DNA from: a virus | Length of the DNA stretch: 64,000 bases | IMG/VR virus record: IMGVR_UViG_3300029339_000415 | Direction: 5' to 3' (one strand) | Shown here: piece by piece, positions 24,922-60,921 of the stretch | How positions within the stretch are numbered: the stretch's first letter is position 1 | How the letters are laid out: the number at the start of each line of letters is the position of its first letter | Notes under the pieces: model-generated | Databases searched by the model: none | What the model was told of the DNA's origin: nothing | What the model saw: only the letters and a program-made list of their open reading frames with translations | Translations under genes and position numbers: made by a program

Positions 24922-25203
24922 TTGAGTAGATATAAGAACGGAAATCCAAAACATGCAAGTCGATTCATATGTTTAAAATGTATGCAAGAAAATATGTTAG
25001 CAAGAGGAATTCAGCGTAAGAAACAACGTGAGAAATTTCATATTAAAGATCTTACTTGTATATTATGCGGTGGAATTGAAACTAAAAATATGGAAGTAAG
25101 GTATTGTGATGATTATAAAGAGATTTATACAAAAGCATTAGAGAAAAGAGAGAATTATTATACAGGAGATTTTAGAAAGGTGGTTGATAATTATGTGTTA
25201 TAA
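24922..25203 (+). CDS. zinc-ribbon protein (93 aa)
   Basis: TTG start after SD TGAGGTGA; CLKC...CILCGG. Confidence 0.4.
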   Translation: MSRYKNGNPKHASRFICLKCMQENMLARGIQRKKQREKFHIKDLTCILCGGIETKNMEVRYCDDYKEIYTKALEKRENYYTGDFRKVVDNYVL

Positions 25204-26173
25204 AATAGAAGTCCAAAATAAAAATGCAGAGAAGCTTAACAGGAAGTTGGATGAGTTGAATCTTCCTATATATACGAGAAAATATTTCAGTGTTAAAATT
25301 GAAAGCAAAGCAGGTGCATTAAATTATCTTGGAGTTATTGTAGATTTGCTCAATTGGTTTATTGAAGAGAAACTTATTAATAAAACAAATATTTCAGATA
25401 TTGAGCCATCGGATTTTACAGATATCATGGCAGAAGATATTACATTATATTTAAAGACAAAAGAACAAAATGGAATGTCGCCAACTACATTAGAAACAAG
25501 GAAACATATTATAAGTAGCTTTTGGGATTATATGAGTAGAGTAAAGGGAACTGAAATTAAAGATGGATTCTTTAAAGATGTAACCTATAAGGGAATTCCA
25601 TCTGGAAATAATTTAACAAAAAAACTTCCAACAGAAAAGCAGCTTAATGATATGGAAGAGAAAATAATGTGGAAAAAGGATGAATGTGTAAGAAATAGGA
25701 ATATTGCTATCTTTCGAGTGTTAAGAGGAACTGGAATAAGAGAATCTGAACTTGCAGGTTTAGATTTGTCTAATTTGCATTTAAAAGAAGAAATGCCATA
25801 CATTACTATTCTTGGCAAAGGTGTGTACAGAGAACTGCAAAATAGAACAGTATATCTTAGTGGATCTGCTTTAAAAGCATTAAGAGAATGGTTAGAATAC
25901 AGAAGTACATTGAATAATGTTGTAGACAAAGAAGCTGTGTTTATAAATAAAAACGGTACACGTACAACAGAAAGAAATATTAAACAGATATTTGAAAATT
26001 ATGGCAATGGCATCACTCCACATATGATGCGACATTATTATGCCAGTATAATGAACAGAAATGGAAATCTTGCATTTGTACAGCAACAGCTTGGACATAG
26101 TAGTGTAAATACGACAGTTAATAATTATGCAAACGGAGCAGTGGGAATGAAAGATATATTAGACAATATGTGA
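25193..26173 (+). CDS. int: tyrosine site-specific recombinase / phage integrase
   Basis: C-terminal HMMRHYYAS...LGHSSVNTTVNNYAN matches Xer/phage integrase catalytic R-H-R-Y box; SD AAAGGTGG. Confidence 0.8.
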   Translation: MCYKIEVQNKNAEKLNRKLDELNLPIYTRKYFSVKIESKAGALNYLGVIVDLLNWFIEEKLINKTNISDIEPSDFTDIMAEDITLYLKTKEQNGMSPTTLETRKHIISSFWDYMSRVKGTEIKDGFFKDVTYKGIPSGNNLTKKLPTEKQLNDMEEKIMWKKDECVRNRNIAIFRVLRGTGIRESELAGLDLSNLHLKEEMPYITILGKGVYRELQNRTVYLSGSALKALREWLEYRSTLNNVVDKEAVFINKNGTRTTERNIKQIFENYGNGITPHMMRHYYASIMNRNGNLAFVQQQLGHSSVNTTVNNYANGAVGMKDILDNM

Positions 26174-26180
26174 TATGTAA

Positions 26181-26210
26181 AGGACGATACAGATTAATTT
26201 GTGTCGTCCT
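26181..26210. terminator. bidirectional hairpin terminator between int and repressor
   Basis: AGGACGATAC / GTGTCGTCCT inverted repeat overlapping repressor stop. Confidence 0.4.
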
Positions 26211-26463
26211 TATTCTTACTTGCTTTATTAATTTCAGTTGCATAGGTTAGTAATCGCTTCATTTGATAGTCATCAGTATCTAATATTTCGAGTGGCGAAC
26301 AATTAAGTTCTTTACAAATTGCCTCTAAAATATCAAATTTAATTGAAGTTGATTCACCTTTGTAGATTTTGTCAATCGTTGGATATGTTACGCCTATTTT
26401 TTTAGCCAGTTCGTAACGTGTCATATTTTTTTCTTTTAATTTGTTTTGAATAGATAATTTCAT
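26194..26463 (-). CDS. HTH XRE-family repressor (cI-like), 89 aa
   Basis: MTRYELAKKIGVTYPTIDKIYKGE HTH; ATG at 26463 (complement) preceded by AGGAGGAT SD; the 205-aa track ORF is an artefactual 5-prime extension. Confidence 0.7.
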   Translation of the reverse strand: MKLSIQNKLKEKNMTRYELAKKIGVTYPTIDKIYKGESTSIKFDILEAICKELNCSPLEILDTDDYQMKRLLTYATEINKASKNKDDTN

Positions 26464-26539
26464 GAATGTAATCCTCCTATATACATAGAGTACCATATAT
26501 AAAAGAAAAAATAAATATAAAAAATAATTGTAATAATAC

Positions 26540-26568
26540 TTGACAATATATATAGTGAAGTATATAAT
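26540..26568 (+). promoter_or_regulatory. sigma70 consensus promoter driving MazF-like gene
   Basis: TTGACA 26540-45, 17-nt spacer, TATAAT 26563-68. Confidence 0.5.
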
Positions 26569-26611
26569 ACAAAATATCAAAGGAACAAACAGAGAAAGGA
26601 GGGCTAACATA

Positions 26612-26962
26612 GTGGAAATTAAACGTGGTGAAATATATTTCGCTGATATAACTAAATATGATTCTAAAGGTTCAGAACAGAGTGGTAGAAGACCAGTACT
26701 GATATTGCAGAATGATATTGGCAATAAGTTTAGCCCTACCACTATAATTGCCATCATAACAACAAAATCTAAAAGGGAATTGCCAACACATGTAGAAATA
26801 CATAAGAACAAGCTTAATGGGTTGAAATATGATTCTGTTGTGGCATTAGAGCAGATTTCGACAATTGATAAAGATAGGATTCAATTTAAAATTGGTGAAT
26901 TATCTGCTGAAGATAATTTAAAGGTTATGGAAGCAATGAAAATTAGTTTGGCTATGATATAA
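26612..26962 (+). CDS. MazF/PemK-family endoribonuclease toxin
   Basis: GTG start after SD AAAGGAGGG; RRPVLILQNDIGNKFSPTTIIAIITT matches MazF/EndoA core. Confidence 0.75.
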   Translation: MEIKRGEIYFADITKYDSKGSEQSGRRPVLILQNDIGNKFSPTTIIAIITTKSKRELPTHVEIHKNKLNGLKYDSVVALEQISTIDKDRIQFKIGELSAEDNLKVMEAMKISLAMI

Positions 26963-36296: not shown

Positions 36297-36352
36297 ATAT
36301 TTTACGCTAGAAAGAAACGCACATTTCATTAGAATTTTTGGAGGTTAAGACA

Positions 36353-37381
36353 ATGACAATTGAACAGATTAAGGACAAATTAAAATCAAAAGAGTATGAC
36401 TTCCTGAGAACAGATAAGAATTTGGGTAACAATATCATTATCTTAACTCTTGGTGGAAGTCATGCATATGGAATGGATAAAGAAGGATCTGATTTAGATG
36501 TGAGAGGTATTGCACTCAACAGCAAATCAGATATTTTACTTGGAACAGATTTTGAACAGGTCGTAAATACCGATACAGACACCACAGTATATTCATTTAA
36601 CAAAATGATTCAGCTTCTTACATCGAATAATCCTAATACAATTGAACAACTCGGTTGTCTACCAGAACATTATTTGCATTTGTCTGATATTGGAAGAGAA
36701 CTTTTAGACAATAGAAAAATGTTTTTATCAAAAGTTTGTATTCATACTTTTGGTGGTTATTCGTCTTCACAGTTAAGACGCATGGAGAACAAAGCTGCAA
36801 GGTTAGTTGGTCAGGCAGAAAATGAAGCATATATTTTGAGAAGTATTAACAATGCTCAATATGAATTTAAAAATAGATATTATCCATACAATGAAAGTGA
36901 TTTGAAACTGTATATTGATAAAGCTGTTCAGGAAGGATATGACAGTGAAATTTTTATGGATGTAAATTTGAAACATTATCCATTAAGAGATTGGGCTGGA
37001 ATGTGGAACGAAATGAAATCCATTGTAAGTAGTTACAGTAAATTTGGCAAACGAAATGAAAAAGCAGTTGCTCATGATAAACTTGGTAAACATATGGCAC
37101 ATTTGATTCGTTTATATATGATGTGTATTGATATTCTTGAAAAAGAAGAAATTATTACGTATAGAGCAGACGAACATGATTTGTTAATGAGTATTAGAAA
37201 CGGAGAATATTTAGATGAGAATAGACAGCCTATTTCTGAGTTCTATGATTTATTGAATGAATATGAAAAACGTTTTGAATACGCAAAAGAAAATACATCT
37301 TTGCCTGATAAACCTGATTATAAGAAAATCAATGAATTTAAGATGTATGTAAATGAGAGAATTGTGAAAGGAGATATCTGA
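36353..37381 (+). CDS. Pol-beta superfamily nucleotidyltransferase (342 aa)
   Basis: ILTLGGSHAYGMDKEGSDLDVRGI = hG[GS]x9-13DhD motif. Confidence 0.55.
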   Translation: MTIEQIKDKLKSKEYDFLRTDKNLGNNIIILTLGGSHAYGMDKEGSDLDVRGIALNSKSDILLGTDFEQVVNTDTDTTVYSFNKMIQLLTSNNPNTIEQLGCLPEHYLHLSDIGRELLDNRKMFLSKVCIHTFGGYSSSQLRRMENKAARLVGQAENEAYILRSINNAQYEFKNRYYPYNESDLKLYIDKAVQEGYDSEIFMDVNLKHYPLRDWAGMWNEMKSIVSSYSKFGKRNEKAVAHDKLGKHMAHLIRLYMMCIDILEKEEIITYRADEHDLLMSIRNGEYLDENRQPISEFYDLLNEYEKRFEYAKENTSLPDKPDYKKINEFKMYVNERIVKGDI

Positions 37382-38343
37382 TGGAAATATCAAATAGAGC
37401 AAAAGAAAGATTCTGTAAGGATTGCAATATACCAATTAGATTATTCCAAGAGCCATATTTTTTAGATAGAATTAAGCTTTTTGATGAGTTCTATGGAACT
37501 GTTGACAAGTGGATTAGATTTGCAAGCGAATTACAGGGGTATAATTGTGAGCAGGATTATTTTGAAGAATATAATCATGTAAAGGATGCAGCTATTACAA
37601 GTATCAAAGAGTCAGAGGCATATCAGAGATTTAATGCGGAAGATATGAACAAATTCACTGTGATTCATAAAAATTTATCTAATAAAGATATATTTAAGCC
37701 AACTAATACTGGAAGAGTTTTTATCAGTATTGATATGAGAAAGGCTAATTTTTCATCTTTACACGAATATGATAAGAATATATTTCGTGGGACTGATACA
37801 TGGGAAGATTTTATTTCTCAATTCACGGATAACGAACATATTGCAAATAGTAAATATATTCGTCAGGTAATTTTGGGTAATTGCAATCCCAAAAGACACA
37901 TCACCTATGAAAAGTACCTTATGGATCAGACATTATCGTTATTATATGACATCATTGGTGAAGAGAGAATTGTATTCTTTTCAAATGATGAGATTGTTTA
38001 TGATATGACAACAGCAAGTAATTTGCACATGTTAAATCTTGTGAGAAATTGTGTTGAAGAAAGATTAAGTACAAAATCTAATATTCCATTCAGAGTTGAA
38101 TTATTTTCGCTCCACAAAATCAATGGTACTGACGGATACTGTAAGAAAATCTATAAAGAAAATGGAAAATATAGTATTGAGTTTAAGTGTTTGGATAATT
38201 ATATAATGCCATTCGTACTTAGATACTTCTTGGGAGAAGAAGTAACTGAAAGTGACAAGGTATTCTACCACGAAGGGTTGCTTGCAAAGTTTATTGATAT
38301 ACCAAAAATTGAGGTGAATTTGAATGAAGAAATTGAAAATTGA
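37381..38343 (+). CDS. hypothetical protein (320 aa)
   Basis: overlapping start/stop ATGA with upstream gene. Confidence 0.45.
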   Translation: MEISNRAKERFCKDCNIPIRLFQEPYFLDRIKLFDEFYGTVDKWIRFASELQGYNCEQDYFEEYNHVKDAAITSIKESEAYQRFNAEDMNKFTVIHKNLSNKDIFKPTNTGRVFISIDMRKANFSSLHEYDKNIFRGTDTWEDFISQFTDNEHIANSKYIRQVILGNCNPKRHITYEKYLMDQTLSLLYDIIGEERIVFFSNDEIVYDMTTASNLHMLNLVRNCVEERLSTKSNIPFRVELFSLHKINGTDGYCKKIYKENGKYSIEFKCLDNYIMPFVLRYFLGEEVTESDKVFYHEGLLAKFIDIPKIEVNLNEEIEN

Positions 38344-39733
38344 AATTCCATCTGGTGCAAATGAAATTATCCATAGTCTACAAAATAATGGATATGAAGC
38401 TTTCTTAGTCGGAGGATGTGTGAGAGATAGTATTCTTGGCAGACCAATTCACGATTATGACATTACAACTTCTGCCACACCAGATGAAATGATGGAAGTA
38501 TTCAAGGACAAGAGAATTATTGAAACTGGTTTGCAACATGGAACTATTACCATTGTAATTGACGGTGAAGGATATGAATGTACAACTTACAGAATTGATG
38601 GTAATTACTCAGATAGTCGTAGACCTGATAGCGTAACATTTACACGAAGTCTTAAAGAAGATTTAAAGCGTAGAGATTTTACAATCAATGCGATGGCATA
38701 CAATGATGAAGTTGGTCTTGTAGATTCGTTTAATGGCATGGAAGATATTGAGCATTATAAAATCAGATGTGTTGGTAGAGCAGAGGATAGATTTTCAGAA
38801 GATGCTTTAAGGATTTTACGTGCTATTCGGTTTGCTTCACAACTGGGATTTGTGGTTGATTCTGACGTAAGTTTGAATATTCATAAAATGTATAAGAATT
38901 TAGAGAATATATCTATTGAGAGAATCAACAGTGAGTTCTGTAAGATTGCATTATCAAGCGAGTTTTATATACAGATAGGATTATTCCGTGAAGTATTTTC
39001 GTTATTTATCCCTGAAATAAAAGATATGTTTGATTTTCCACAGAATAATCCATATCACATCTATGATGTATGGGGACATACAATTCATGCAGTAGAAGCT
39101 TATGAATGTGATTGTGAACCCGACTTGAATCCAAGAGATTTAATTACGTCATTGGCTGTATTTTTTCATGATATTGGAAAGCCACATTGTTATCAAGATG
39201 GCGAAGATGGTATTAGACATTTTAAAAGTCATGGAAAAGTCAGTGCTGATATGACTGATACAATTATGAAAAGACTTCGTTTTGATAATGATACAAGAGA
39301 AAAGGTTGTTGGATTAGTCTATTATCATGATGCAACTTTTGAAGTGGGTGAAAAGTATATCAAGAGATGGCTCAATAAGATTGGAGAAAAACAATTTAGA
39401 AGATTACTGAATGTTCGTAGAGCAGATATTAAAGCGCAGGCTTATACAGAGCAAGAGAGTAGGCTTCAGAAAATTGACAACATCAAATATATCTTAGAGG
39501 AAGTTTTACAGAAAGACGAATGTTTCTCACTGAAAGATTTGGCTGTTAATGGCAATGATTTGATTGAGATCGGATATAAGCCAGGAAAAGAAATAGGGAA
39601 TACACTGAATTGTCTTTTGCAGTTAGTAATTGAAGGTGTATATCTAAACGAGAAAAGTGAGTTACTTAAATATATTGAAACAACAAAAGAATGGATGAAG
39701 TTAGGAGAGAATTATAATGGTAAGATTATTTAG
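38324..39733 (+). CDS. cca: class II CCA-adding enzyme / tRNA nucleotidyltransferase with HD domain
   Basis: head motif FLVGGCVRDSILGRPIHDYDITT; HD motif FFHDIGKP. Confidence 0.75.
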   Translation: MKKLKIEIPSGANEIIHSLQNNGYEAFLVGGCVRDSILGRPIHDYDITTSATPDEMMEVFKDKRIIETGLQHGTITIVIDGEGYECTTYRIDGNYSDSRRPDSVTFTRSLKEDLKRRDFTINAMAYNDEVGLVDSFNGMEDIEHYKIRCVGRAEDRFSEDALRILRAIRFASQLGFVVDSDVSLNIHKMYKNLENISIERINSEFCKIALSSEFYIQIGLFREVFSLFIPEIKDMFDFPQNNPYHIYDVWGHTIHAVEAYECDCEPDLNPRDLITSLAVFFHDIGKPHCYQDGEDGIRHFKSHGKVSADMTDTIMKRLRFDNDTREKVVGLVYYHDATFEVGEKYIKRWLNKIGEKQFRRLLNVRRADIKAQAYTEQESRLQKIDNIKYILEEVLQKDECFSLKDLAVNGNDLIEIGYKPGKEIGNTLNCLLQLVIEGVYLNEKSELLKYIETTKEWMKLGENYNGKII

Positions 39734-40643
39734 CCACAGTGATTTAGACGGAATTGGTTGTGGTATTTTAGCACAACTTGCATTTGGTAAAGATAATGTA
39801 GAAATTTCATATTGTGATTACGACAATATTGATTCAACTGTAAAGGAATATTTGGAAACAGAACAGGACGACACAATCCCAATTTATATTACCGATATTC
39901 GTGTTAATGAAGAAACCGCTGAGTTGCTGAATAAAAGAGGCAATGTTCAGTTATTAGATCATCATCCAACAGCTCTTGGATTGAATAAGTATGATTGGTG
40001 TGATGTAGTTATTGAAGATTCCAAAGGAATTAAAACATCGGGAACTATGTTGTTTTATCATTGGTTAGGTATGAATGGTTGTCTGAGTGAAGAGTTAGAG
40101 AATAATAAAGCGTTAGAGAGATTTGCTGAACTTGTGAGAGATTACGACACTTGGAGATGGTCAGAACTTGGTGAAGATGGTGTTATTTGTAAGCAGGTGA
40201 ACGATTTACTTTATCTGTATGGTCGAGATGATTTTATTCATTGGTGTATTTCAGAAATCCATGATGAGGTATTCCCAAGATTATATGCTAAAGATGAGGT
40301 TATTCTGAAGATTAAGCAGGATGAAATTGATAGATATATCGAAGAGAAGAATAAAACTATGTTTACCAGTCCTATGTGCGGTAAGGTTTGTGGTTTTGTA
40401 TTTGCAGATAGATTTGTTAGTGAATTAGGTAATAGACTTTGTAAAATGCATCCTGAAATTGATTTTGTGGCTATGATTGATATTGATGGTTGTACGGTAT
40501 CTTATAGAACCGTTAAAGAAGATATTGATCTTGGTAAAGATGTAGCAAGTTTATTTGGTGGCGGTGGTCATCCAAAAGCTGCTGGTTCAGAATTTAGTCA
40601 GAGTATTAAGTTGAAAGTTATTGAGGAAATCTTTGGACAGTGA
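39717..40643 (+). CDS. DHH/DHHA1 phosphoesterase (NrnA-like oligoribonuclease / pAp phosphatase)
   Basis: HSDLDGIGCG, LLDHHPT (DHH) and LFGGGGHPKAAG (DHHA1) motifs. Confidence 0.7.
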   Translation: MVRLFSHSDLDGIGCGILAQLAFGKDNVEISYCDYDNIDSTVKEYLETEQDDTIPIYITDIRVNEETAELLNKRGNVQLLDHHPTALGLNKYDWCDVVIEDSKGIKTSGTMLFYHWLGMNGCLSEELENNKALERFAELVRDYDTWRWSELGEDGVICKQVNDLLYLYGRDDFIHWCISEIHDEVFPRLYAKDEVILKIKQDEIDRYIEEKNKTMFTSPMCGKVCGFVFADRFVSELGNRLCKMHPEIDFVAMIDIDGCTVSYRTVKEDIDLGKDVASLFGGGGHPKAAGSEFSQSIKLKVIEEIFGQ

Positions 40644-42107: not shown

Positions 42108-42497
42108 GTGAAAATAAAAGATAAAATACGAAATAAATTAAGAACTTGGTTCTTTGAGACTGAATTAAAGGACTTGCAAAAATCTACTATACAGATGCAA
42201 ATGGCACGAAACCAATATTCAGACGCATATAGATTAGTCAATGATTGTCATCAATTAATAAATTCAATGATGGATGTCGGAACTGATATTCATTTACATA
42301 GCGACCATTCTTGGGCTGTTGTATGTATTAAAGGTCACCCAGAGTACGTATCATTTATGCCATTATCATCTGGTGATGCTCGTGATGTAATCAGATTTTT
42401 ACAACAATTCAAATATTCAGATAGGGTGATTGATTCACCTTTTGGATTTAAAAATATGATTAATGACCATATTATGGATAATCCATTTGTAAAGTAG
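42108..42497 (+). CDS. hypothetical protein (129 aa)
   Basis: GTG start after SD GTGAGGTGAG. Confidence 0.4.
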   Translation: MKIKDKIRNKLRTWFFETELKDLQKSTIQMQMARNQYSDAYRLVNDCHQLINSMMDVGTDIHLHSDHSWAVVCIKGHPEYVSFMPLSSGDARDVIRFLQQFKYSDRVIDSPFGFKNMINDHIMDNPFVK

Positions 42498-42563
42498 AGA
42501 ATAATCTAATATAGAAGTAATTCTATTCAAAGGCTGGTCAGCCAAATTAAGCGAGGTGATAAA

Positions 42564-42863
42564 GTGAAGAAATATTGGGAAACAGGTGAAAAGAATAAAT
42601 TTGGTAAGGAATGTTATAAATTACATTTTAGTCAATTTTATGAAGAAGATGATAAAAATGTAGTAGCTGGTTTTGTACAAGATGAGACAGACGAAAACAT
42701 ATTTATATATGTATCAAAAGAATTAAATGTTGAATATGATACATTGTTTGCAGACAGTATAGAAGATGCAAAGCATCGAATTGAAGAGATGTTAATAGAC
42801 CATTGGAATGAAGAGATTGATTATTTAGAAAATCGAATTAAATCATTTCAAGGCGAAGAATAA
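42564..42863 (+). CDS. hypothetical protein (99 aa)
   Basis: GTG start after SD GCGAGGTGA; flanked by similar GGCTGGTCAGCCAAATT / GGCGATTCAGCCAAATT hairpins. Confidence 0.4.
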   Translation: MKKYWETGEKNKFGKECYKLHFSQFYEEDDKNVVAGFVQDETDENIFIYVSKELNVEYDTLFADSIEDAKHRIEEMLIDHWNEEIDYLENRIKSFQGEE

Positions 42864-43056
42864 TCATATATAGAAATTTCTATCTTGGCGATTCAGCCAA
42901 ATTTTCCAAATAAAAGTAACAAGAATTATTTTTTCCTATGGTTTTAGCAGACGTGTTAATTCCATAGGATTTTACAACAAAATAATTAAGAAGAAAGGAA
43001 TTAAGCAGTAACTCCTAGGTAATTATGGTTACGTGACCTCTGTAAAATAGTATATT

Positions 43057-44025
43057 TTGACAGAGAATAATGAAAAAAATAATTATTGTGAGCTTAATGG
43101 ACGACCATTGCGTTTATTAATAGGTGGTTCACCTTGTACATTTTGGTCGATCTCACAATCACCCGAAAGAAGAGAAACCACTTGTGAAGGTACAGGATGG
43201 GAATTATTTAAAAATTATTTAATTACGAAAGAAAAATGGCAACCAGATATATTTTTATATGAGAACAACGAAAGTATATCAAAAGAAATTCAAAAAGAAA
43301 TCGAAAAACGATTAAATGTTAATCTATTACATATCAACAGTGCATTATTATCAGCACAAACTCGACATCGTATCTATGCTACTAATATCAATATTGATCC
43401 AAAAAATATTATAGATAAGGGTATAAGAGTGAAAGATATTCTTGATGTTAAATTCCATAAAGAAAACTTAATAAATGAGGTCAAATTTAATAACAGAGAT
43501 GATACTAAGGATAACAATAAACTTGTTAGAATTGGCACTATTGGTAAAGGTGGACAAGGTGAAAGAGTATATTCCATAAATGGTAAATCATGCACTTTGT
43601 CTGCCAATGGTGGTGGAAGAGGTGCAAAAACTGGATTGTATCTTATCAATGGAGAAGTAAGAAAATTAAATCCCTTAGAAGCAGAAAGATTACAGACGTT
43701 ACCTGATAATTATACATTATGTAATGGTGTTCCTGAAACGCAGCGTTATAAAAGTATTGGTAATGGATGGACGTCAGAGGTAATTATTCATATTTTAAAT
43801 CAGGGATTAAAGAATGTTCCACGAGATTATCCTATTGAAGTTCTAAGCTTATATGATGGTATTGCTACTGGTAGATATTGTTTAGAAAAAATGGGATTTA
43901 CAAATATTATATATAAAGCGTATGAAATAGATAAATATGCTATGAATGTTGCCACATATAATTATCCAGATATTGAAGAGTGTGGCGATGTATTCCAGGT
44001 TAGAAATGATGATTGGGAATATTAA
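43057..44025 (+). CDS. DNMT3-like DNA (cytosine-5) methyltransferase, circularly permuted (motifs IV-X then I-III); start codon uncertain
   Basis: LLIGGSPCTFWS (IV), EGTGWELF, FLYENNES (VI), QTRHRIYATN (VIII), ERLQTLPDNYT, GNGWTSEVIIHIL (X), then PIEVLSLYDGIATG (I) and GDVFQVRNDDWEY at C-terminus; no in-frame ATG, TTG 43057 overlaps a TTGACA -35-like hexamer, no SD. Confidence 0.55.
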   Translation: MTENNEKNNYCELNGRPLRLLIGGSPCTFWSISQSPERRETTCEGTGWELFKNYLITKEKWQPDIFLYENNESISKEIQKEIEKRLNVNLLHINSALLSAQTRHRIYATNINIDPKNIIDKGIRVKDILDVKFHKENLINEVKFNNRDDTKDNNKLVRIGTIGKGGQGERVYSINGKSCTLSANGGGRGAKTGLYLINGEVRKLNPLEAERLQTLPDNYTLCNGVPETQRYKSIGNGWTSEVIIHILNQGLKNVPRDYPIEVLSLYDGIATGRYCLEKMGFTNIIYKAYEIDKYAMNVATYNYPDIEECGDVFQVRNDDWEY

Positions 44026-44098
44026 ATAGAGAATAACATAAAAGGAAGGAGTAAGAGGTTTGGTATACCGAAAACGCAGCGTTTACTCCTGATATATA

Positions 44099-44824
44099 AT
44101 GATTTACATGGGAAGCAAAAATCGGTTATCAAAACAAATTGTACCGATTATACAGAATTACATAGACAATGGATGCAATGGTTATTTAGAACCATTCGTA
44201 GGTGGTGCAAATATTATTGATAAAATTGAATGCGACAATAAGATAGGAAGCGATATTGATAAATATGTAATCTCTGTACTTATTGGTTTGCAGCAAGGAA
44301 TTGAACCACCAAAAGAAGTATCGAAAGAATTTTATATTGATGTAAAAAATAATCCTGACAAGTATTCTGATTTTATAACAGGGTATATAGGATATGAACT
44401 TAGTTTTGGAGCAAAGTGGTTTGGGGGTTATGCAAAGCGTGATGATGCTAAACATCGTGGAGATATTTATTCTTACAAATCATGTATGAAGCAAGCTCCA
44501 AATCTTAAAGATATCCATTTTAGAACAGCTTCATTTTTAGATTATTCTAACTTATATGGGTATGTAATATATTGCGATCCACCGTATAAAAATACAACAA
44601 AATATAAAACAGGTGAATTTCCATATGAACAATTTTATCAATGGTGTAGAAAAATGTCTAAAGATAATGTTGTCATTATAAGTGAATATTCAATGCCAGA
44701 TGACTTTGATTGCATTTGGGAGAAACAAGTTAAGATTACATTTGACAGCAATAGAAAGTGTAATAGCATTAAGGATTTTCGAAGAGAAAAGCTGTTTGTG
44801 TATAAAAATAAAAGTTCTAAGTAA
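44099..44824 (+). CDS. Dam-family (D12 class) N6-adenine DNA methyltransferase
   Basis: GSKNRL...YLEPFVGGA N-terminal motif and YCDPPYKNTTKY catalytic motif. Confidence 0.7.
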   Translation: MIYMGSKNRLSKQIVPIIQNYIDNGCNGYLEPFVGGANIIDKIECDNKIGSDIDKYVISVLIGLQQGIEPPKEVSKEFYIDVKNNPDKYSDFITGYIGYELSFGAKWFGGYAKRDDAKHRGDIYSYKSCMKQAPNLKDIHFRTASFLDYSNLYGYVIYCDPPYKNTTKYKTGEFPYEQFYQWCRKMSKDNVVIISEYSMPDDFDCIWEKQVKITFDSNRKCNSIKDFRREKLFVYKNKSSK

Positions 44825-48810: not shown

Positions 48811-49674
48811 ATGTTAGAGATTAACAAAATATACAATGAAGATTGTCTTGAAGGTATGAAAAAGATTGATGATAAGTCAATTGATTTTATCTTCACGGAT
48901 TTGCCTTATAATACGACCAATAATTTTTGGGAATGTGAAATGCCGTTAAATGATTATGTCGAGTTATCAGGTCAATATTTTTATGAAACAGATTTATTTA
49001 AGTTAGCTCAAGTAACAAATAGTAGTCTTGAATATACAAGAGATTGGTTTTATGAGAACAAAAAAGATGGTTTATGGACTCATTACAATCGAATCATCAA
49101 AGATAATGGTTGTATTGCATTATGGGCGCAGTCACCATTTGATAAGAGACTCGCTTGTAGTAATGAAAAATTGTATCGCTATGAATGGATTATCGAAAAG
49201 ACCAAAGCAACTGGTCATCTAAATGCTAAGAAAATGCCTATGAAGGCACACGAAAATGTTTTGATTTTCTATAAAAAACTCCCTACTTACAATCCACAAA
49301 TGACAGAAGGACATACACCTGTTCATTCTTATACAAAACATACAACAGATGGCAACTGTTATGGTGCTACAAAGACTGGTATTTCAGGTGGTGGCAGTAC
49401 ACAAAGATATCCAAGAGATGTTCTGCAGTTCAAGTGGGATACTCAGAAAAGTAGCTTACATCAGTGCCAAAAGCCTGTTGAAGCATGTGAGTATTTTATT
49501 AAGACCTACACCAATCCAGGAGATTTAGTTCTTGATTCGTGTGCAGGAAGTTGTACAACTGCAGTTGCAGCTTTGAATATAGGTAGAAATTATATATGTT
49601 TTGAGAAGGACAAGGATATTTTTGAGGTTGGAAGTAAGAGAGTAGCTGAGTGCAAAGGAGAGAAAAATGACTGA
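48811..49674 (+). CDS. beta-class N4/N6 DNA methyltransferase (DNA methylase N-4/N-6 domain)
   Basis: motif IV IDFIFTDLPYNTT (DLPY variant of DPPY) and C-terminal motif I GDLVLDSCAGSCTTAVAA. Confidence 0.65.
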   Translation: MLEINKIYNEDCLEGMKKIDDKSIDFIFTDLPYNTTNNFWECEMPLNDYVELSGQYFYETDLFKLAQVTNSSLEYTRDWFYENKKDGLWTHYNRIIKDNGCIALWAQSPFDKRLACSNEKLYRYEWIIEKTKATGHLNAKKMPMKAHENVLIFYKKLPTYNPQMTEGHTPVHSYTKHTTDGNCYGATKTGISGGGSTQRYPRDVLQFKWDTQKSSLHQCQKPVEACEYFIKTYTNPGDLVLDSCAGSCTTAVAALNIGRNYICFEKDKDIFEVGSKRVAECKGEKND

Positions 49675-59829: not shown

Positions 59830-60921
59830 ATGAAAGACATTAAGATTGTATGTGGATCGAATTGGGGAGACGAAGGAAAAGGTTTAATGACAGATTATTT
59901 CTCACAGAAACCTAATAGTATTGTTGTTTGTTCAAATGGTGGTGCTCAGAGAGGACATACCGTAACGACTCCTGACAGAATCAGACATGTCTTTCATCAT
60001 TTTGGATCTGGAACATTCAATAATGCAAGTACATATTTATCTGAGGATTTTATTGTTAATCCAATTATTTTTAAGCAGGAATATGATGAATTGATGAAAT
60101 TAGGATATGTCCCAAATGTTTATATCAATCAAGATTGTATGTTGACTACACCTTTTGATATGATGGCAAATCAGATTATAGAGGAAAATCGTGGAAAAAA
60201 TAAACATGGTAGTTGTGGCTTGGGAATTTTTGAAACTATCAAAAGATATAAAGCTGGCATAACTGATGTAGATAATCAAATCAGAGAATATTACTTAGAA
60301 CAATTTGAAAGAGAGAATATTATATTAACAGATGAATGGTCAAGAATATTCTTTGATAATGGTATATTTGAACACTTTTTAGATGATTGGGATTTTATGA
60401 ATAATCACTCATTGGCTATATCAGATAATTATTTCTTAAATCAATTTGACAATATTGTATTTGAAGCTGCACAAGGTTTATTACTTGATCAGAACAACAC
60501 AGAATATTTCCCACATCTAACACCGTCTAATACAGGTATTAAAAATCCCAAGAGAATAATTGAAAATGTTGAATGGAATGAAGAAATAAATATTGAAACT
60601 TGTTATGTATCTCGTACTTATTTAACAAGACATGGTGTTGGCAAATTTCCATCTGAATGTAATAAGAGATTTATCAATGAATATATGTTTGATAAAACAA
60701 ATGTGCCAAACCCATTCCAGGATACATTGAGATATGGAACACTTGATTTAGGAGAATTATATAGTAGATGCTCTAATGATATAGGAAATTTTGGAGATAA
60801 AAAATCAATCGCCATTACACATTGTAATGAATATGATTGGGATAATGATAAGTTGATTGAGTTATTCAAGGATTGGACCATTTATTACTCAGATGGCGAA
60901 ACACATAATGATGTGAACTGA
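59830..60921 (+). CDS. adenylosuccinate-synthetase (PurA) family enzyme, short form; candidate PurZ-like
   Basis: P-loop GSNWGDEGKGL, GGAQRGHTV, FEAAQGLLLD, SRTYLTRHGVGKFPSE; only 363 aa; PurA guanine-specificity TKLDVLD replaced by ITHCNEYD. Confidence 0.65.
   Translation: MKDIKIVCGSNWGDEGKGLMTDYFSQKPNSIVVCSNGGAQRGHTVTTPDRIRHVFHHFGSGTFNNASTYLSEDFIVNPIIFKQEYDELMKLGYVPNVYINQDCMLTTPFDMMANQIIEENRGKNKHGSCGLGIFETIKRYKAGITDVDNQIREYYLEQFERENIILTDEWSRIFFDNGIFEHFLDDWDFMNNHSLAISDNYFLNQFDNIVFEAAQGLLLDQNNTEYFPHLTPSNTGIKNPKRIIENVEWNEEINIETCYVSRTYLTRHGVGKFPSECNKRFINEYMFDKTNVPNPFQDTLRYGTLDLGELYSRCSNDIGNFGDKKSIAITHCNEYDWDNDKLIELFKDWTIYYSDGETHNDVN

Follow-up and report, generated by a model that had tools for sequence, protein, structure and literature searches.

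Natural circular permutation between motifs III and IV in a phage C5-cytosine methyltransferase gene whose start codon lies on an invertible DNA segment

The window analyzed here, a 64,000 nucleotide (nt) stretch of viral DNA from IMG/VR record IMGVR_UViG_3300029339_000415, carries a circularly permuted C5-cytosine DNA methyltransferase gene at 43057..44025 on the plus strand. The gene has a TTG start, a TAA stop and encodes a protein of 322 amino acids (aa). It is the first TTG-to-stop open reading frame (ORF) of its frame, with a TAG two codons upstream at 43048. All of the C5-methyltransferase motifs were present in the order IV-VI-VIII-TRD-IX-X-I-II-III, where TRD is the target recognition domain, and every motif quoted in an initial annotation of this DNA was found in the ORF. 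The leader and the TTG itself lie on a short segment that is found in both orientations among related phages.

The protein begins with the catalytic half (43123..43371, plus strand), which aligns to DNMT3B 72-171 and includes motif IV (GGSPC, aa 23-27, with the catalytic Cys27), EGTG (aa 44-47), motif VI (ENN, aa 69-71) and motif VIII (QTRHR, aa 101-105). The TRD and motif IX (43399..43716, plus strand, aa ~115-220) resemble M.HhaI, with the loops GKGGQGERVYS and TLSANGGGRGAKTG, and RLQTLPDNYT occupies aa 211-220. Motif X (GNGWT, aa 235-239), a helix and a linker of about 10 aa, NVPRDYPIE, between the former C- and N-termini are encoded at 43759..43833 on the plus strand, where GNGWTSEVIIHIL spans aa 235-247. 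The half that binds S-adenosylmethionine (43840..44022, plus strand) is placed last, with motifs I (VLSLYDGIATG), II (YEID) and III (GDVF), and ends with W320; the segments PIEVLSLYDGIATG and GDVFQVRNDDWEY correspond to aa 259-272 and 310-322, respectively.

The Pfam profile PF00145 aligned on the native ORF only between aa 18-249 and profile positions 62-321, with a score of 65.5 against a cut-off of 22, while the last 68 aa by themselves matched profile positions 2-56. When the protein was un-permuted, by placing aa 255-322 before aa 1-254, one stretch covered positions 2-321 of the 324 in the profile, and the same rearranged sequence aligned contiguously to M.HhaI 16-313 and DNMT3B 9-177. 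Since un-permuting restores single contiguous alignments to PF00145, M.HhaI and DNMT3B, the permutation is real, and the break between motifs III and IV proposed in the initial annotation was borne out. The C5 residues P26-C27, E69-N70, Q101/R103/R105, D267-G268, E290, G310-D311 and G235-N236 were present and invariant in an alignment of 47 sequences. Conventional relatives have about 12 residues between GDVF and DLLIGGSPC, whereas the permuted proteins end in ...GDAFQVRxxDW and begin with (K)ILIGGSPC; the cut is therefore clean and lies within the III-IV loop. The canonical linear order from I to X is not found in the 43057 protein, which runs from IV to X and then from I to III, and because of this order the NCBIfam dcm model scored 67.8, under its cut-off of 100.65.

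A survey of REBASE by Albert/Slaska-Kiss et al. in 2018 identified 27 natural permuted C5 enzymes, all of one type (H), and concluded that nature favors permutation pathways that keep both domains intact (PMC5944983). Woodcock et al. in 2020 stated that the 5-methylcytosine motif order has only "one alternative permutation" (PMC7544214). The natural bacterial enzymes of the M.BssHII type (M.Alw26I, M2.Eco31I, M.Esp3I and M2.BsaI) have motif X joined to motif I, like the 43057 protein, but their N-terminus is in the variable region, the order is IX-X-I...VIII and both domains are intact (PMC5944983). In the 43057 protein, the N-terminus is 17 aa before GGSPC and thus not in the variable region, the TRD is internal, and the Rossmann-fold domain is split between beta-3 and beta-4, so that the distinction from the BssHII-type permutants drawn in the initial annotation held.

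The distinction from the plant DRM permutation was also correct. DRM2 and NtDRM share the DNMT3-like core and the X-to-I joint, and DRM2 176-287 aligns without interruption to aa 201-314 of the 43057 protein. However, the DRM enzymes are eukaryotic, have UBA domains and follow the order VI-X and then I-V, with the break between V and VI. DRM2 232-320, in which motifs I to IV are contiguous, aligns to aa 5-97 of the un-permuted protein, and because DRM2 continues from motif III into IV where the 43057 protein ends, the two breaks differ. DNMT3A/3B/3C share PI.VLSL.DGIATG and GGSPC with the phage protein. They differ from it in their conventional order, their short TRD that reads CpG, their PWWP and ADD domains and their assembly into oligomers with DNMT3L, features that are all absent from the 43057 protein. 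M.HhaI, which recognizes GCGC, is also conventional in order, and its core motifs I-III match the 43057 protein weakly (5.9 bits). The class-beta amino-methyltransferases have the same linear order (IV, TRD, I) by the definition in PMC7544214, but their catalytic motif is (D/N/S)PP(Y/F/W) and they act on an exocyclic amine; the 43057 protein has GGSPC and so is no member of that class.

No published description of the III/IV topology in natural C5 enzymes was found, although REBASE itself was not queried, and in the literature found the break is known only from engineered enzymes. M.HaeIII permutants with the N-terminus between motifs III and IV were active, according to the account that PMC5944983 gives of its ref. 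14. These proteins and the engineered Type C permutants (PMC5944983) have the same breakpoint region and a direct X-to-I joint and methylate DNA, so the III/IV topology is compatible with catalysis. The idea has been put forward in PMC5944983 that a permutation close to motifs II-IV makes the binding of S-adenosylmethionine weaker. The engineered permutants were made in the laboratory, while the 43057 enzyme occurs in nature, is abundant and is subject to selection.

Full-length relatives were numerous among 5.8 billion proteins searched, with identities between 97% and about 62%. The initial annotation had called for homologs with the same motif order, and 117 of the 120 closest protein clusters were permuted alike. 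Among the best 148 representatives at 50% identity, 91 had the same permutation and 40 the conventional order (~45-56% identity). Typical permuted members begin with M[IK][KR][IL]LIGGSPC, that is, with an ordinary ATG directly at the beta-4 strand, and contain TRDs of very different size, from 300 to >900 aa. The permuted family was present in 37 of 64 related viral loci and in 40 of the 80 best loci of species-representative genomes, nearly all of them gut or rumen Clostridia. Cultured carriers include Butyricicoccus pullicaecorum DSM 23266, Lachnospira eligens, Flavonifractor sp. An82 and Criibacterium bergeronii.

The ratio of nonsynonymous to synonymous substitution rates (dN/dS) against relatives was 0.05-0.11 for the entire protein, and the motif I-III tail, with 0.04-0.09, was as constrained as the rest; these values show purifying selection. 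The AlphaFold2 model, in which strands and helices came in the expected order, had a predicted local distance difference test (pLDDT) score of 87.6 and a predicted template modeling score (pTM) of 0.88. Predicted disorder was limited to aa 1-8 and one TRD loop, while aa 260-316 formed strands and helices with pLDDT >90. The top structural matches in Foldseek were M.HhaI, which was the best, DNMT3A/B/C and DRM.

These results bear on the suggestion in the initial annotation that the gene may be a pseudogene, for example a rearranged, nonfunctional remnant of a conventional methylase produced by recombination between tandem copies. Such an origin would be consistent with an ORF that has neither an ATG start nor a Shine-Dalgarno sequence and with a 23-nt relic of methylase motif IX/X just downstream (44061-44083). 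Moreover, phages such as Perkons and P2559Y have tandem conventional genes, and a tblastn alignment can run from motif X in one of these on to motif I in the following gene. Nevertheless, an identical architecture is retained from 97% to about 40% identity across hundreds of clusters, the low dN/dS extends over the full length, the catalytic residues are all invariant, the fold is predicted confidently and most family members have ordinary ATG starts. The refuting observation named in the initial annotation, a contiguous conventional gene in related phages, was not borne out, since related phages carry the same permuted gene. A pseudogene is thus highly improbable, and the ORF apparently encodes a working C5 methylase, an assessment that draws on sequence conservation, the fold model and the engineered enzymes. 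Of 79 permuted representatives, 76 had a spacing of 26 or 28 residues from GNG to motif I, and the linker pattern (I/V)P(K/R)D..I.V was conserved. Because this spacing and pattern are conserved, a single origin of the permuted family is suggested.

Several variants of the gene were observed. A motif IV in which GGSPC runs into FVAGT or FTKGH, with about 350 extra residues between it and the rest of the core, looks like an intein insertion at the catalytic cysteine and occurs in the permuted members P0129, P0177, P0186 and P0215 and in the conventional members P0175, P0203, P0246, P0248 and P0266. Frames of about 266 aa in L036/L037 (3836-4633) and L131 have motifs IX-X and I-III without the Pro-Cys motif and may be split or truncated forms of the permuted gene. 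Phage nd4 (L069 2498-4174, OR777945, WRQ08028.1) encodes a permuted member of 558 aa that is labeled 'hypothetical protein' in GenBank, and PHROG 17284, which covers the X-to-I joint, carries the label 'unknown function'.

The initial annotation described the protein as a DNMT3 catalytic domain, a description that was appropriate for the core and not for the whole protein. The closest solved relatives of core motifs I-VIII were DNMT3A/3B/3C (E 1e-9 to 1e-12), and when the core with the TRD removed was used as the PDB query, DNMT3A/3B/3C chains alone reached E<=0.001, so that DNMT3-like is a fair description of the core by sequence. For the whole protein, which has an M.HhaI-like TRD, the top PDB match was M.HhaI (E 2e-25). 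The 43057 protein is a single domain of 322 aa and lacks the eukaryotic N-terminal domains.

Residues 150-215 were about 60% identical to both M.HhaI recognition loops (GKGGQGER...TLSA.GGG). The phmmer alignment to M.HhaI 186-300 retained Q237, E239, R240, T250, S252 and G255-257, in the numbering of the HhaI contact residues (recognition loops 233-240 and 250-257), and Y254 was replaced by Asn. Because the TRD resembles that of M.HhaI, the methylated site is predicted to be GCGC, with a confidence that is moderate because of the substitution at Tyr254. A different target, either another site in double-stranded DNA, such as a short GC-rich sequence, or RNA as in the case of Dnmt2, is less probable but is a possibility of some weight. 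In addition to Asn at position 254, the Ile-Phe at M.HhaI residues 258-259, just past the GGG loop, is Arg-Gly in the 43057 protein, predictions based on TRDs are frequently wrong by one base and there are just 6 GCGC sites in the window. On the other hand, apart from these changes the two HhaI recognition loops are conserved and do not vary within the subfamily, and the PDB search showed no likeness to Dnmt2 or to RNA m5C enzymes.

The start of the gene is unusual, as the initial annotation noted. TTG 43057 is the first possible start, the first in-frame ATG is codon 278 and no Shine-Dalgarno sequence precedes the TTG. By comparison, 79 of 95 long plus-strand frames had a Shine-Dalgarno match of at least 5 nt before at least one candidate start, while both methylase genes (43057 and 44099) had none. 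Most long frames of the genome have a strong Shine-Dalgarno match such as GAGGTGA or AGGAGGT ahead of a candidate start, and both methylase genes are atypical in this respect. The TTGACA hexamer reported at the TTG is present, but the idea of a promoter was unsupported, since 12 promoter-like sites were found where 12.6 were expected from shuffled sequences. The TTG and the stop two codons before it are kept in about 20 related phage loci, as is a conserved leader of roughly 150 nt, even when the TRD differs. The unusual start is real, and its explanation is that the start codon and the leader sit on an invertible cassette common to several methylase genes. The cassette encodes the first 12 residues, MTENNEKNNYCE, which are disordered in the AlphaFold2 model, and for this reason the clade has an N-terminal extension that is missing in other family members.

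Another possibility is that translation starts at the out-of-frame ATG 43070 and enters the ORF by a -1 slip, or that a sequencing error in a run of A hides an ATG. There are indeed seven A residues (43073-43079) directly after this ATG, and a -1 slip there would enter the frame of the ORF. However, ATG 43070 is missing in close relatives (AAAG for AATG in L004-L007) and in the L002 lineage, while the TTG and its frame are conserved, and the A7 run is conserved because it is the core of the right inverted repeat. Either version of this alternative is very unlikely.

Within the leader, covariation was limited to a hairpin at 42935-42968, which is followed by ATTTT and may insulate the gene against upstream read-through. 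A search of the leader against Rfam gave no match at E<=5. A stable leader RNA that would bring GAAAGGA near the TTG was rejected, in that four leader variants folded no better than shuffled sequences (z -0.4 to -1.4). The 12-bp leader palindromes were also rejected as the target of the enzyme itself, as their centers (ACGT, GCGC, TGCA) do not follow the TRD type, and the palindrome AACGCAGCGTT within the gene was discarded as a functional site, its synonymous positions not being conserved.

The invertible core consists of 136 nt (42936..43071) bounded by the left inverted repeat AATTATTTTTTC (42924..42935), with an imperfect extended arm at 42910-42934, and by the right inverted repeat GAAAAAAATAATT (43072..43084), with an extended imperfect arm at 43074-43098. 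The right repeat is inside the ORF, at codons 6-10, and together with its extended arm (to 43098) encodes EKNNYCE. The core contains the 42935-42968 hairpin, the SD-like sequence GAAAGGA (42993-42999), the 12-bp near-palindrome GGTTACGTGACC (43027-43038), TTG 43057, codons 1-5 and about 120 nt of the leader.

In the Lachnospiraceae contig L070, the leader including the TTG was reversed between 12-bp inverted repeats. The locus L150, with a methylase 97% identical to the 43057 protein, had an inverted junction with exactly the predicted structure, and the core was reverse-complemented with the same boundaries in L150/L009, L151, L152, L014 and L026. The inverted state was found in L070, L150, L151, L152, L153, L014 and L026. 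A junction search of IMG/VR yielded 105 forward and 15 inverted contigs, and 13 further metagenome contigs had the inverted junction, for an inverted total of 28. The flanks of the forward locus L260 (900 + 1200 nt) were 100% identical to those of four inverted loci, L156, L272, L273 and L275. L260 and L272, which come from ERR14022035 and ERR14760561, are identical over 320 nt save for the 133-nt middle, which is an exact reverse complement. Because the flanks are 100% identical over 2.1 kb, that inversion was recent. The segment is a partial intergenic inverton, as defined by Chanin et al. (PMC10028968), in which the start codon rides on the invertible part.

In the inverted state, a TAG or TAA is in frame immediately before the right repeat, and gene callers start at Leu20 ('MLIGGSPC', 303 aa) or at Met46. 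Flipping of the segment thus probably turns the gene on and off. The orientation in the window would be the ON state, an assignment based on the logic of the reading frame and on the 7:1 excess of the forward orientation.

The two orientations could instead be assembly artifacts or old, fixed inversions, with the gene expressed constitutively and weakly from the TTG. The evidence consists of consensus contigs and not reads, no invertase gene adjoins the segment and the repeats are short (12-13 bp) and A/T-rich. Against this explanation, 1) a 12-bp repeat is well under the k-mer sizes of assemblers, 2) the same junctions occur in 28 inverted contigs from different studies and assemblers, 3) both states are found in all four methylase classes described below and in a second leader lineage with different repeats, and 4) one forward and inverted pair has 100% identical flanks over 2.1 kb. 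The absence of a switch is accordingly considered unlikely.

The candidate invertase is a tyrosine recombinase gene at 25184..26173 on the plus strand (PF00589, E 9e-29), which may be merely the phage integrase. It is the sole recombinase seen in the window and lies 17 kb from the switch. The gene adjoins a Cro/CI-type helix-turn-helix gene (26194-26811, minus strand), the only sizeable minus-strand gene, and the pair looks like a lysogeny module. Three metagenome contigs, OCSG01000004.1 (327,761 nt), OGEC01000004.1 (305,171 nt) and ERZ827498 NODE-1 (645,236 nt), are near two or four times ~160 kb in length, and OCSG01000004.1 bears the same inverted junction twice; these are probably concatemeric assemblies of the same phage and not larger genomes.

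The right repeat and the leader are shared by four classes of C5-methylase genes on phage contigs of 100-190 kb, and each class occurs in both orientations. In class 1 (44 forward, 13 inverted), the cassette-encoded YCE is followed by KNWKLVNFCEFDKYA..., which places motif II first, and the protein ends in ...SSFFSGIGAFEIAL, with motif I last. In class 2 (27 forward, 9 inverted), LSVIELCSGIGAQ... follows the YCE, and the protein has the conventional order and a zinc ribbon. Class 3 (15 forward, 3 inverted) is the III/IV-permuted family of the 43057 ORF, with LNGRPLRLLIGGSPC... after the YCE, while class 4 (18 forward, 2 inverted) has ..VLSLCDGMSCG... at this position and the conventional order.

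The class 1 loci include L164 (6829-8301, plus strand), L161, L154-L158 and about 50 others. The protein has, in order, motifs II (LVNFCEFDKYA), III and IV (GGSPCQ), a zinc ribbon, VI, VIII, the TRD, X (GNSIVV) and I (SSFFSGIGAFEIAL). Its Pfam score rose from 206 for the native sequence to 216 when un-permuted, and class 1 is apparently a second natural C5 permutation, with the break between motifs I and II as read from the sequence. Neither the I/II nor the III/IV topology has been reported for natural C5 enzymes in the literature found, REBASE itself not having been queried.

Tandem arrays of two or three conventional C5-methylase genes were seen in Psychrobacillus phage Perkons (L067, 64386-67339, ORF136-138) and in Croceibacter phage P2559Y (L068, 36306-38442), and in L028, upstream of 4001, a conventional C5-methylase gene is directly before the permuted one. 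Such arrays are raw material for the duplication-and-truncation model of permutation. It is a matter of speculation that insertion of the cassette into tandem arrays created the permuted genes. In the III/IV family the permutation probably came before the cassette, since the family is far wider than the cassette.

The neighbors of the 43057 gene are a metallophosphoesterase gene, genes for small proteins of unknown function and a Dam-like methylase gene (44099..44824); no nuclease gene was found near the methylase. A third DNA methyltransferase gene (48811-49674; Pfam N6_N4_Mtase, class beta) is located 5 kb downstream, and its homologue in L153 adjoins the permuted C5 gene. In L153, genes for Thg1, an RNA ligase and an HNH protein also adjoin the methylase. 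The window has a G+C content of 31.5% and shows a strong depletion of GC-rich 4-mer palindromes, containing GGCC 0, CGCG 1, CCGG 3 and GCGC 6 times, against 12-25 expected from a Markov model, while GATC is present at 0.36 of expectation. This avoidance of palindromes would fit a phage under restriction pressure with orphan protective methylases.

The region between the two methylase genes has features of its own. About 50 nt upstream of the Dam-like gene, in the region 44026-44108, a strong GGAAGGAG is able to base-pair with the TTACTCC that immediately precedes the ATG (GGAGTAA...TTACTCC). The 23-nt sequence at 44061-44083, in the spacer ahead of the Dam-like gene, is an 83% copy of the motif IX/X code at 43725-43747 (GVPETQR / GIPKTQR) with a 12-nt exact GC-rich core, AAACGCAGCGTT. 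Relatives retain the copy even if they have lost dam, and it is probably what an older methylase gene left behind. Successive gene ends (42495-42516, 42854-42875, 43061-43071 and 44027-44037) have a boundary repeat with the sequence TAGAGAATAATC[TA][AT]ATATAGAA or just its core, AGAGAATAA, and two small hairpins come after it. In related phages these boundaries are maintained and the intervening genes vary, so that the repeats resemble recombination or terminator modules that set off one gene cassette from the next.

Elsewhere in the window, the segments 36338-40643 and 59830-60921 encode an RlaP-type nucleotidyltransferase, a tRNA nucleotidyltransferase, a DHH phosphoesterase and an adenylosuccinate synthetase, which are proteins of RNA and nucleotide metabolism. 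The size of the phage genome is about 155 kb, and no near-identical DNA was found among GenBank phages.

The interpretation that accounts for these observations, and that is regarded as likely, is that the 43057 gene encodes a functional orphan phage C5 methylase, lacking a restriction partner, of a large III/IV-permuted family, with a predicted GCGC target and a protective role, and that its expression is governed by the 136-bp inverton. The polypeptide starts at beta-4 and motif IV and ends after motif III, and the normal fold would be rebuilt because the linker of about 10 residues connects motif X, the former C-terminal helix, with motif I at the former N-terminus. The most likely substrate would be phage DNA, methylated at the inner C of GCGC and thereby shielded from host restriction. 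In the forward orientation, the leader and the TTG would be joined in frame to the gene, which would be ON, while after inversion a stop codon would abut the right repeat and the gene, without a leader or start, would be OFF.

Several observations weigh against this interpretation: 1) assembled contigs reveal polymorphism at the population level and not switching within a clone, 2) no recombinase was linked to the switch, as tblastn with the tyrosine recombinase of the window over the other loci gave one match with 25% identity, 3) there is no convincing promoter inside the invertible segment, 4) a TTG without a Shine-Dalgarno sequence is a weak initiation signal, 5) the specificity is deduced from TRD similarity alone, with Y254 replaced by Asn, and 6) a neighbor-joining tree of 195 core columns split off the permuted family cleanly in only 25 of 100 bootstraps, too few to resolve its monophyly.

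Short segments flanked by inverted repeats also flip in the Gin system of Mu, the Cin system of P1 and gut invertons, where they change expression or the 5' end of a gene. Gut-bacterial invertons control methyltransferases and so produce epigenetic phase variation (PMC11741434), and putative invertons in gut viral genomes were first reported in 2026, none of them with a methylase (PMC13501310). The switch described here differs from these systems in that it is phage-borne, serves orphan C5-methylases instead of tail fibers or hsdS and includes the start codon. Moreover, a single type of cassette is used by four methylase genes that are unrelated or permuted. Permuted methyltransferases and invertons were both known; what was unexpected is a natural permutation that breaks the Rossmann fold and a phage start-codon inverton shared by methylase genes.

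If the enzymes are active, the rule that natural C5 permutations preserve the domains (PMC5944983, PMC7544214) would be wrong, C5 enzymes would have a topological freedom equal to that of the amino-methyltransferases, and DNMT3-like cores would have undergone separate permutations in phages and, as DRM, in plants. Present annotation tools under-call the permuted family, as illustrated by NCBIfam dcm, PHROG 17284 and the phage nd4 record. The start cassette would be the first phage inverton tied to a methylase, as far as the literature found shows, and is a testable case of phage-encoded epigenetic phase variation. A broader proposal, which is tentative and more doubtful than the interpretation above, is that a portable start cassette phase-varies four C5-methylases in gut phages of about 150 kb, hedging between classical and methylation-dependent restriction, and that it may have created the I/II and III/IV topologies. 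If so, phage populations would hold differently methylated virions.

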